A stretch of 64,000 nucleotides of DNA from Dictyostelium discoideum. Lineage: Eukaryota. The notes under the pieces are model-generated. The model was given only the letters and a program-made list of their open reading frames with translations, ran no database searches and had not been told where the DNA came from. Position 1 is the first letter of the stretch. Each line of letters starts with the position of its first letter. This document shows, in pieces, positions 38,334 through 41,757 of this stretch. A program made the position numbers and the translations under genes. The DNA is taken from contig CM000154.2 in the NCBI GenBank assembly GCA_000004695.1, forward strand, positions 1,824,001-1,888,000, written 5' to 3'.

Positions 38334-39604
38334 TTATTATTATTATTTTTATTTATTTTTTTATTTATTTTTATTTTTATTTTAATAAAATTGAAAATAA
38401 TTATTATTCTAACTGCTATAAATGATTTTGTATTATTTTTTATATGAACTGAGGATTCAAAAAACCCATTAAACACACAGCATACAAACTCTATCAAACA
38501 GCATGCATTTACACCCACTTTCAAACAAATACAAATATATTTTTTTACCACAAAAAAAAAAAAACACATTATATTAATCTAGATTTATATGGTATTCAAA
38601 AACAACATTATTTTTTTTTTCTATTTTAGGAATCTATCTTAATGTTGTCAAATTTTTTAATTGAATATTGTTCTATTTTTGTCTCCAAAAAAAAAAAAAT
38701 AAAAAAAATAAAATAAAAAAAAAAAAAACAACACAAAACATGATTACTTTACTTTTTTTTTTTTTTTTTCTCCAAACACTACAAATCAAAAAAAAAAAAA
38801 AAAATAAATAAAAATAAAAAAAAATTAAAAATACTTGAAAATAACACATACCAAAAAAAGACATTGAAAAAAAAAAATTATGTGTGGAGAGAGCGTTAAA
38901 ATAATTAAAATATTGATTATTTGAATAACTGACCACCACACTCACCACCACACCATTGGTTAATATTAAAAAAAAAAAATTCTCCATTGTTTGGATAAAA
39001 AAAAACAACCGCCAAATTAATTTTTTGAAATTAAGTAAAAGTAAATAAAAACATAAAAAAGAGATAATTACCAAAAATTAATTTTATCTGAACATTTCTA
39101 TTATTTAATTAATATTTAGCACCCAAACCAATTTAAAAATTTTAATTAATAATTAAATATTTGAAAAATTTGTTATTTTATTTAAAATTTTAAAAAGAAT
39201 TGTAATTTTTAAAATAATTTTAAAATTAATTATTTAATTAATTATTATTTTAATTTTTTGATTATAATAAATATTCTCCAACCAATAATTAAATATTATT
39301 TAAATAATTTTTTAAATGATAATTAATAGTAATAAAAAAAAAATTCAGATTCCCTATAAATCTTTTTTTTTAATAATTTAAGTTCATTGGACTTAAATTT
39401 ACTATGTTTGAAAAAAATGATGACGGTGTACCCCCAAAGATAAAAATAAAAATAAATATTTATTTTTATTTTTATATTTTTATTTTTAATTTTTTTTTTA
39501 TTTATTTTATTACTATAATTATTATAATTATTATTATTATTATTATTATAAATTAATTATTATTACTATTATTAATTATATAGTAAATATTATTCTTTGG
39601 AAAA

Positions 39605-40336
39605 ATGGGTGTAGGTGATAATGAAAATCCAATTGTTAGTTTTAAGTTTATTGTAACATCATTATTAACAAAATTAATTGGTAGATACTTTAAAGAATTT
39701 GGTTATACTGAATTTATTTACTATTCAATTTTTTTTTTTGGTCAAAAGATAAAATATTTTCAAAGGGATCCCGATGAAAAACCATCAATTTTAAAGATGA
39801 TACTTCCACTAATCTTTATGATTTTAAATGTGATTTTTGCAGTTTATTATTTCAATGAAGATTGTAAAGAAATTATTTCAAAAAATAATGACCCCAATTT
39901 ATTTATTGGATTAATATTACTTAAATATTTATTTCATAATAATAATATTACACATGTTATGATTCATATTACTGATATTTATTTAAATGCTATTGTAAAT
40001 ATAATATAATTTTTTTTTTTTCAAAAAAAAAAAAAAAAAAAAAAAAACACAAAAACACAAAAAAACAAAAACACAAAAACAAAAAAACTTATAATTCTTT
40101 ATTATTTAATTATTTAGAAATTTATTGAAATTATAAAACTAATGATAAAAGAAATAATACTAAATTATTATGCAAAAATGAATAAACAATTAACAAAAAA
40201 ACCATTTGAAAATTTAGATGGTGCTGGTGGAGATGATAGTGGTGAAGATGACTATTTTGAAGAAATAATGTGTGTAAACAAAGGTGAAAAAGAAGAATAT
40301 TATGAAAGTAGAAAATTAAAACAAAAAATAAATTAA
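39605..40336 (+). CDS. Novel small membrane protein with an acidic C-terminal tail, copy 1. Exons 39605-39994 and 40118-40336 (202 aa).
   Basis: MGVGDNENPIVSFKFIVTSLL..., two or three hydrophobic segments. GCT ATT + GTAAAT donor and tatttag acceptor. Exon 2: KFIEIIKLMIKEIILNYYAKMNKQLTKKPFENLDGAGGDDSGEDDYFEEIMCVNKGEKEEYYESRKLKQKIN. Paralogous to copy 2. Confidence 0.65.
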
Positions 40337-40936
40337 TAAACTTTTTAAAAAAAAAAAATTTTAAAAATTAAACTATCCATAAATTCAAAAAAAAAAACTC
40401 TCGATTGTTTGAATAATAAAAAAAAAAACAGCCGCCAATTTAAATGTTTGCCATTAAGTAAAAAGTAAAAAATTAATTATTATTTGATAATAAATATTGT
40501 TTAAACTATTATTATTTTTTTTTTAAAATGAAAAAAAATATCATATATTAAAATGTAAATAGCCCAAGTTGGCCCATTTTTTGTAAAAGATATTTTTAAA
40601 TGGGAATTCATAAAAAAATAATTTAATAATTTTTAAATTTAAAAAAGTGCGCAAACTCGGACGATTTGTAATAAAATCTTTTTTTTTAAAAAATTTAAGT
40701 TCATTGGACTTAAATTTACTATGTTTGAAAATAAATTATGACCGTGTAATACCAAAAAAATTAAAATATAAAAATAAAATTTTATTTTTATATTTTAATT
40801 TTTTTTTTTTTTTTTTTTTTTTTTTGTAATTATTTTAATTATTTTTGTTATTACTATTATAATTATTATTATTATTTTAAATTTATTATTATAAATTTAT
40901 TATTAAATTATTAATTAAATATTATTTTTTTGAAAA

Positions 40937-41623
40937 ATGGTTCTAGGGGATAATGAAAACACAATTGTTAGTTCCAAGCTAATTTTAACAACATTGACAA
41001 CAAAATTAATTAGTAGATACTTTAAGAAAGAATTTAAATTTAGTTATTTTATTTACTGTTTAGTTTATATTATTGGTAAAAATATAAAATTTTTTAGAAG
41101 GGATCCAGATAAAAAACCATCAATTTTAAAGATGAATTTTCTACTATTGTTTGTCTTTTCAAATGTGCTCTCTGGGGTTTATTATTTGTATCAAGATTGT
41201 AATGAAATTTTTTCAAAAAACAATGACCCTGATTTATATTTAATTGGATTGATATTACTTATTTTTCAAGATGATAGTTTTCCACATGTTTTTATTCATA
41301 TTACTGATCTTTATTTAAATATTACTGTAAGTATAATATAAAAAAAAAAAAAAAAAAAAAAAAAAACACAAAAACTAATAATTCTTTATTATTATATTTA
41401 GAAATTTATTGAAATTAGAAAACAAAGAAAAAAAGAAAAAAAATTAAATAAAAAGGCAGAGATGCACAAAAAATTACAAAAAAAACCATTTGAAAAAGAT
41501 TTGGACGGTGCTGGTGGAGATGATAGTGGTGAAGATGACTATTTTGAAGAAATAATGTGTGTAAATAAAGGTGAAAAAGAAGAATATTATGAAAGTAGAA
41601 AATTAAAACAAAAAAAAAATTAA
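40937..41623 (+). CDS. Novel small membrane protein, copy 2. Exons 40937-41326 and 41402-41623 (203 aa).
   Basis: Same architecture as copy 1 (MVLGDNENTIVSSKLILTTL...). ATT ACT + GTAAGT donor and atatttag acceptor. Exon 2 ends ...KKPFEKDLDGAGGDDSGEDDYFEEIMCVNKGEKEEYYESRKLKQKKN. Exon 1 length (390 nt) is identical to copy 1. Confidence 0.65.
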
Positions 41624-41757
41624 TAAACTTTTTAAAAAAAAAAAGAAAAAATATATTAAAAAATTAAATTGTCGGTCAATTAAATAAAAAATTCTAAAGG
41701 GAATCTATTTTAATTTTCAAAAAAAAAAAAAAAAAAAAAATATTATAAAAATGATTT

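Follow-up and report, generated by a model that had tools for sequence, protein, structure and literature searches.

A tandem pair of young Dictyostelium genes combines a body that evolves as if neutral with a 40-residue tail under strong constraint

Within a 64,000-nucleotide (nt) stretch of the Dictyostelium discoideum genome (assembly GCA_000004695.1, contig CM000154.2, positions 1,824,001 to 1,888,000 of the forward strand; hereafter the window, in whose coordinates positions are given), two small two-exon genes lie head to tail between roughly 38980 and 41700. They are a genuine, already annotated tandem pair from a young orphan family, ordinary in kind but with a few noteworthy evolutionary oddities, in which a body evolving as if neutral is joined to a strongly constrained tail of 40 residues. 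Judged from the sequences, the best explanation overall, towards which we lean with some reserve, is that the product would be anchored in a membrane by a loosely constrained sequence and display a docking peptide on the cytosolic side; the assignment of that peptide as an LC3-interacting region (LIR) is the most speculative step.

We compared the two copies with each other and with relatives in a family of eight database proteins from D. discoideum (reference strain AX4 and strain FIR), D. cf. discoideum, D. citrinum (two strains) and D. dimigraforme. In the spliced frame, the ratio of non-synonymous to silent rates (dN/dS) was 0.05–0.2 over the tail (40 residues, from LDGAGG to the C-terminus) and 0.9–1.5 over the body (residues 1 to ~163), where it did not differ from 1 (p = 0.25–1.0); for exon 1 it was ~1.0–1.5. 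The non-synonymous rate was lower in the tail than in the body with p = 1e-7 to 6e-5 in four of six pairs; for the remaining pairs p was 0.026 and 0.45. Body and tail do not differ, by contrast, in silent rate: tail dS was 0.18 between paralogues and 0.33 to D. cf. discoideum, with corresponding body values of 0.22 and 0.15–0.20. As the silent rate in the tail is normal, its 97% nucleotide identity between paralogues, against 81% for exon 1, reflects constraint at the protein level, and neither gene conversion nor an RNA element is required to explain it. Body residues that are replaced retain their hydropathy (r = 0.3–0.56, p <= 0.0012), and the open reading frame (ORF) of 130–134 codons is open in seven of the eight gene copies, in DNA of ~15–20% G+C. 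The common phase-0 intron, the open ORF and a tail constrained in the spliced frame establish that the gene is real.

Young and fast-evolving, the family occurs only in D. discoideum and the species nearest to it. Word-indexed and profile searches, together with an exhaustive HMMER scan over 1.84 billion representatives, returned no homologue outside the D. discoideum clade, bar one spurious bacterial repeat protein. We rejected that protein (P0008, 1357 residues, with repeats that begin NLDGGxGDPSGEGxY) as a chance Gly/Asp-rich motif: only profile positions 161–193 match it, six times over. The initial annotation, made from the sequence alone, had been unable to place the protein in any family, and neither the HMMER searches nor curated collections changed this. 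The best Pfam match, Acyl_transf_3, is not significant (E = 0.043, 13 bits against a cut-off of 31), NCBIfam gave nothing meaningful, and a profile search of the PDB gave 0 matches at E <= 10.

A membrane-embedded product, as first proposed, is plausible: hydropathy analysis places a strong hydrophobic helix at ~62–86 in all seven intact coding sequences analysed, with weaker ones near 8–28, 35–53 and 100–120. AlphaFold helices fall at the same places as the hydropathy peaks, and residues 157–176 are modelled as coil with a predicted local distance difference test (pLDDT) score below 50. A basic segment follows the last hydrophobic helix, which by the positive-inside rule suggests that the tail lies on the cytosolic side. 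In the mechanism we favour, one firm and up to three weaker hydrophobic helices would form a loosely constrained membrane anchor, followed by a basic membrane-adjacent segment and then by an acidic, flexible tail, ~40 residues long, on the cytosolic side. Selection would act almost only on the tail, and the body would stay open and hydrophobic to allow the tail to be produced and held at a membrane. The tail core (LDGAGGD, the acidic run and [F/Y]EE[I/V]) might then serve as a short docking motif, which is the most conjectural part of the scheme.

Apart from loop residues, the only feature conserved family-wide is K-D-L-D-G-A-G-G-D, an acidic run and [F/Y]EE[I/V]. The tail DGAGGDDSGEDDYFEEIMCVNKGEKEEYYESRKLKQK, previously reported from both copies, is indeed found in each, and the tail peptide that carries FEEI in AX4 is GGDDSGEDDYFEEIMC. 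The core reads FEEI in D. discoideum and D. cf. discoideum, YEEV in D. dimigraforme and D. citrinum strain 1, and FEEV in D. citrinum strain 2, with D, N, S or E before it in every family member. It thus agrees with the broad definition of an LIR or Atg8-interacting motif (AIM), namely [W/F/Y]-x-x-[L/I/V] in acidic surroundings and kept among orthologues. When matched by hand to the canonical and extended LIR patterns (PMC5119064), DTYEEV of D. dimigraforme fits both. By analogy, the most likely partner would be Atg8, bound through an LIR/AIM-type site like the FEEL of TEX264, a receptor in ER-phagy (ER, endoplasmic reticulum), although taken by itself this identification is tentative and rather doubtful.

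Several observations weigh against this account. DYFEEI, DYYEEV and DFFEEV fail the LIR patterns, at position −1 only, where they carry an aromatic residue, and short linear motifs of this kind readily arise by chance. The AlphaFold models are poor (pLDDT 46 and 50), the topology being drawn from hydropathy and charge alone, and the contigs on record that carry these proteins are all genomic, with no spliced transcript among them. Moreover, a body dN/dS indistinguishable from 1 also fits decay, and the −1 and −2 indels that create a stop in FIR copy 1 are likewise expected of a decaying gene.

These last points bear on a rival reading, in which one or both copies are drifting to pseudogenes as young, barely constrained ORFs whose hydrophobicity is a by-product of translating T-rich DNA. 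This is unlikely, even though the restricted range, the lack of a family match and the weak AlphaFold confidence fit it as well as the near-neutral body and the FIR indels do. Strong purifying selection acts on the tail, in the spliced frame, both in the paralogues and across species, and ~0.4 silent substitutions per site have left the ORF, the position of the intron and the pattern of hydropathy in place. Exon 1 indels have lengths divisible by three save in FIR copy 1, and there they could be either assembly errors or the start of decay. The deposited FIR model (P0003; L001 8591–9329) bridges this frameshift pair with an invented intron, and in the deposited D. cf. discoideum model (P0005; L002 10001–10778) a false 3’ splice drops the conserved tail, which is intact in the DNA; we flag both models as likely wrong.

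The gene unit also coincides with an island of divergence. Between AX4 and FIR, identity is 74–93% over 39737–41556 against 94–100% in the flanks, and between the two D. citrinum strains (L004 7375–8957 versus L005) there are 5–15 mismatches per 60 nt inside the island against 0–2 outside, with sharp edges, from ~600 nt upstream of the ATG to just before the downstream neighbour. That neighbour, from 41900, is a pyridoxal-dependent, glutamate-decarboxylase-like decarboxylase gene, which we take to be gadB. In these two independent comparisons the island includes non-coding and silent sites and is confined to the gene unit; relative to gadB in the same pairs, the body has a dS 3.6–4.2 times and a dN 20–50 times higher. 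Possible causes are old haplotypes kept by balancing selection, tandem copies lost reciprocally and a mutation hot spot.

Balancing or diversifying selection on a conflict or recognition gene beside the tgr genes, with the two diverged forms as the selected state, would account for the sharp islands and the elevated rates, and for the fact that, next to Tgr-like IPT/TIG genes, two forms ~19–20% apart are present, in D. discoideum as paralogues and in D. citrinum as alternative haplotypes. We nonetheless consider it improbable: the comparison covers two genomes per species, dN/dS does not significantly exceed 1, the pattern could be mimicked by a local mutation hot spot or by the reciprocal loss of a D. 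citrinum-specific tandem pair, and the dS of gadB may simply be unusually low. A wider version is very unlikely. In it the membrane-tethered protein would be a hypervariable adaptor specific to the clade, with a conserved tail that recruits Atg8 or some other conserved machine of the cytosol. Balancing or diversifying selection would maintain the diversity of its body, seen as two D. discoideum paralogues and two deep D. citrinum haplotypes, the cause being conflict between strains or with intracellular bacteria in the neighbourhood of the tgr genes.

A further alternative takes the tail for another trafficking signal in place of an Atg8 site, either a VAP-binding motif resembling FFAT (a pair of phenylalanines within an acidic tract) or an ER-retrieval KXKXX end of the di-lysine type; we regard it as quite improbable. 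Like FFAT and FFAT-like motifs (consensus EFFDA-E), the presumed cytosolic tail has two adjacent aromatics in an acidic tract (DDYFEE, DFFEE, DYYEE). However, in the register D-Y-F-E-E-I-M position 5 is Glu where Ala, Ser or Cys is wanted, and the alternative register departs, by consensus alone, at positions 1, 3, 5 and 7. An S5-to-E change abolished ER targeting (PMC3261905), and we rejected the FFAT assignment on position 5. According to the same paper, the lack of at least 2.5–3 elements inhibits targeting. KXKXX ends (KQKIN, KQKKN, KQKTN), with K at −3 and −5, occur in AX4 and FIR copies 1 and 2 and in D. cf. discoideum. They are missing in D. citrinum (…LYSKE, …YQKDK) and D. dimigraforme (…RKIHF), and KXKXX would thus be at most a D. 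discoideum-specific addition, not a family feature. A phosphotyrosine (pYEEI) or YxxØ reading was also discarded, as Phe replaces Tyr in D. discoideum and in one D. citrinum strain.

It is highly improbable, and largely refuted, that the near-identity of the tails comes from recent gene conversion or from a nucleotide-level element (RNA or antisense), for although the similarity does continue ~20 nt beyond the stop codon, the silent divergence of the tail equals that of the body with only non-synonymous change suppressed, the tail is equally kept in orthologues of other strains and species, and Rfam gave no match over 38600–41900 other than an insignificant mir-754 (E = 4, with 19 bits where the gathering score is 84).

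The tandem arrangement itself is firmly grounded. A head-to-tail repeat of 1.33-kb period had been proposed, and a repeat finder recovered direct-repeat families spanning 38997–41644 with start-to-start spacings of 1332, 1335, 1317, 1287, 1284 and 1423 nt; from the ATG of copy 1 (39605) to that of copy 2 (40937) is exactly 1332 nt, and the two paralogues match with E = 3.3e-71. Homology between the duplicates can be traced over ~38980–40400 and ~40400–41700, in the same orientation and through the non-coding flanks. The duplicated unit, of ~1.3–1.4 kb, comprises the upstream region, 5’ leader, two exons, intron and 3’ end of a small gene. An independent AX4-lineage assembly agrees over 38000–42500 (4.5 kb; 0 mismatches, 13 gap positions), which excludes faulty assembly as the source of the repeat. 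Two copies are present in strain FIR as well, and because orthologous pairs are closer in exon 1 (~90% identity) than paralogous ones (77–82%), the duplication is older than the AX4/FIR split. Two copies occur only in these strains, with one at the same slot in D. cf. discoideum, both D. citrinum strains and D. dimigraforme, so the duplication arose inside the D. discoideum lineage. No further family copies were found in the window or in the other loci.

The single gene of D. cf. discoideum has a copy 1-like upstream region and a body slightly nearer copy 2, and is preceded by two tandem copies, 118 nt apart (L002 9643–9675 and 9761–9793), of the second upstream block described below. These three features suggest that it derives by deletion from an ancestor with two copies, the paired block possibly being the scar left when copy 1 was removed, although distances do not decide the matter. 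Weakly similar A-rich stretches ending in …AAAATTCT or …AACTCT sit before unit 1 (38940–39000), at the junction (40360–40402) and after unit 2 (41660–41703); they could be boundary marks of the duplication, but are of low complexity and not convincing.

Contrary to the initial annotation, which described the gene as novel, both copies are already in the AX4 reference annotation. The spliced product of copy 1 is DDB_G0288713 (XP_636591.1, UniProt Q54IJ5; P0001), with 100% identity over 202 residues, and the copy 2 model of 203 residues is DDB_G0288737 (XP_636592.1, Q54IJ4; P0002). The two entries are adjacent and agree with our models in protein sequence and exon structure, and they are labelled only ‘hypothetical protein’ or ‘Transmembrane protein’; a literature query with the gene and UniProt identifiers found no paper mentioning DDB_G0288713 or DDB_G0288737. 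Both spliced peptides given initially match these models and annotated proteins.

The DNA has ~15–30% G+C, intergenic poly-A/T tracts and short introns of the form GTAAGT...TAG. Each copy has an exon 1 of exactly 390 nt, as had been read from the sequence, with donors GTAAAT and GTAAGT, and a phase-0 join to AG/AAATTTATTGAAATT yields the 202- and 203-residue proteins. Reading through the copy 1 intron reaches a stop after 4 codons. The two-exon structure and kept intron position reported for the pair extend to all eight loci in four species, in each of which the intron is of phase 0, follows codon 130 or 134 and has a GTAA[AG]T donor; its length ranges from 63 to 136 nt and is in some cases not a multiple of 3.

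Two details of the protein-level description had to be revised. The N-terminus MG(V/L)GDNEN stands except for copy 2, which begins MVLGDNEN and not MGLGDNEN. The ‘extra KQRKKEKKLNKKAE insert’ ascribed to exon 2 of copy 2 is no insertion, as this stretch pairs gap-free and at equal length with IKLMIKEIILNYYA of copy 1; the segment has diverged, copy 1 carrying the hydrophobic IKLMIKEIILNYYA and copy 2 the basic RKQRKKEKKLNKKA. Exon 2 codes for 72 residues in copy 1 and 73 in copy 2, and the sole indel is one codon. At the 3’ end, the AATAAA that overlaps the copy 1 stop codon is a probable polyadenylation signal; TAATAAACTTT is kept in four of five aligned units, with D. cf. discoideum carrying TAATTAACTTT instead.

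Upstream of each gene, two non-coding blocks had been described as conserved at the same offsets, and as retained promoter elements. Both blocks exist and were co-duplicated, with 74% identity between copies for block 1 (38997–39068 versus 40420–40491, repeat family D17) and 95% for block 2 (39363–39417 versus 40680–40734, family D20). Their offsets are not the same, as the distance from CCGCCAA in block 1 to the downstream ATG is ~599 nt for copy 1 and ~508 nt for copy 2, and block 2 lies 227 and 242 nt upstream, which amounts to shifts of ~91 and 15 nt. Block 2 is 88% identical between the paralogues over ~83 aligned nt, the central 55 nt at 95%, and contains a 33-mer that occurs exactly twice in the window, with 0 occurrences expected from shuffles. 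A 25-mer of block 1 is identical in FIR copy 1 and D. cf. discoideum and differs by four substitutions in AX4 copy 2, while FIR copy 2, D. citrinum and D. dimigraforme yielded no match to it. Block 1 (CCGCCAA), which FIR copy 2 lacks, is confined to the D. discoideum group; block 2 is partly conserved in all eight loci, including D. citrinum and D. dimigraforme. A promoter role for the blocks is unproven.

Because a TATA-like box and a T-run precede block 2 and a short conserved upstream ORF (uORF) lies inside it, block 2 may be part of a transcribed leader rather than a promoter; a TATA-like box followed by a T-run is the usual arrangement ahead of Dictyostelium transcription starts. The uORF reads MMTVYPQR* in copy 1, MVTIHPQR* in D. 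dimigraforme (L003 7825–7851) and MTIHPQSK… in D. citrinum (L004 7826…, L005 7864…). Between D. dimigraforme and D. citrinum there are four synonymous codon changes and no residue change, and a stop, TAA or TGA, persists. The uORF may encode a conserved peptide, or the stretch may simply be a DNA element. We rejected the palindrome TTTAAGT-N7-ACTTAAA of block 2 as a conserved hairpin, its left arm not being kept in D. citrinum and D. dimigraforme. In FIR copy 2 the leader has undergone a long (ATT)n expansion (L001 ~9760–9990), with block 2 pushed to 319 nt from the ATG. Separately, a CA-rich run (ACCACCACACTCACCACCACACC) at 38930–38962, upstream of copy 1 only and of different length in FIR, presumably resembles the CA/GT-rich regulatory elements of Dictyostelium promoters.

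In every locus fetched, the slot lies between a Tgr-like gene and gadB. In the window, the nearer Tgr-like gene and copy 1 diverge from a common intergenic region of ~1.7 kb (Table 1). Elsewhere in the window, two U1 spliceosomal RNA genes lie in opposite orientation at 22430–22592 (+) and 46152–46314 (−), both above the Rfam gathering score.

Table 1. Features of the tandem pair and its upstream neighbours, in window coordinates. Exon 2 includes the stop codon.
Feature	Position	Strand	Remarks
Block 1 of copy 1 (TCTCCATTGTTTGG...CAACCGCCAAAT...ATTAAGTAAAAGTAAA)	38981..39068	+	
Block 2 of copy 1	39355..39455	+	33-mer 39378-39410; uORF 39417-39443; TATA-like box and T-run in front
Exon 1, copy 1 (DDB_G0288713)	39605..39994	+	390 nt, 130 codons, hydrophobic body
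Intron, copy 1	39995..40117	+	123 nt, GTAAAT...TTTAG, phase 0
Exon 2, copy 1	40118..40336	+	constrained tail (LDGAGG...KQKIN) at 40214-40333
AATAAA over copy 1 stop codon	40335..40340	+	read in sequence
Block 1 of copy 2 (CAGCCGCCAAT variant)	40399..40491	+	begins 63 nt past copy 1 stop
Block 2 of copy 2	40672..40775	+	33-mer 40695-40727; uORF shortened to MTV* at 40738-40749
Exon 1, copy 2 (DDB_G0288737)	40937..41326	+	390 nt
Intron, copy 2	41327..41401	+	75 nt, GTAAGT...TTTAG, phase 0
Exon 2, copy 2	41402..41623	+	constrained tail 41501-41620; AATAAA 41622-41627
Tgr-like gene, IPT/TIG domains	32022-34553	−	
Tgr-like gene (nearer), IPT/TIG and Ig_TgrO1 match	35437-37854	−	tandem with 32022-34553

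As a find, the pair is of little weight, since two annotated hypothetical genes were met again in a genome where tandem duplicates abound. The comparative work validates both AX4 gene models, provides a testable short-motif hypothesis for an orphan family, and marks a divergence island worth a look in social amoeba population data. Like this island, the tgrB1/tgrC1 allorecognition locus of D. discoideum, which is highly polymorphic, shows a local peak of divergence between strains with Tgr-family genes nearby. Here, by contrast, the variable gene is not a Tgr gene, and the adjacent Tgr-like genes are only mildly diverged.

For the tail, a parallel can be drawn with membrane-anchored receptors of selective autophagy that carry a C-terminal LIR, above all TEX264, in which the validated core is FEEL and upstream serines are CK2-phosphorylated (bioRxiv 10.1101/2022.02.11.480038). 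The resemblance is a functional analogy only: there is no sequence homology, and three of four lineages depart from the canonical and extended LIR patterns by having an aromatic residue at position −1. What the two would have in common, on the features predicted here, is a membrane anchor, a long flexible cytosolic segment, an acidic or serine run and an aromatic-E-E-aliphatic core, with SGEDDYFEEI here against SGSSFEEL in TEX264, the SGEDD of D. discoideum lying just upstream of the core. In other respects the family resembles young, taxon-restricted hydrophobic genes, which can encode small hydrophobic proteins from T-rich DNA, as in work on de novo genes in yeast: it is short and limited to one clade, has a dN/dS near 1 and is rich in F, I, L, Y, N and K, in a genome of ~22% G+C. 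Unlike such genes, it carries a clearly constrained C-terminal module and a conserved intron.

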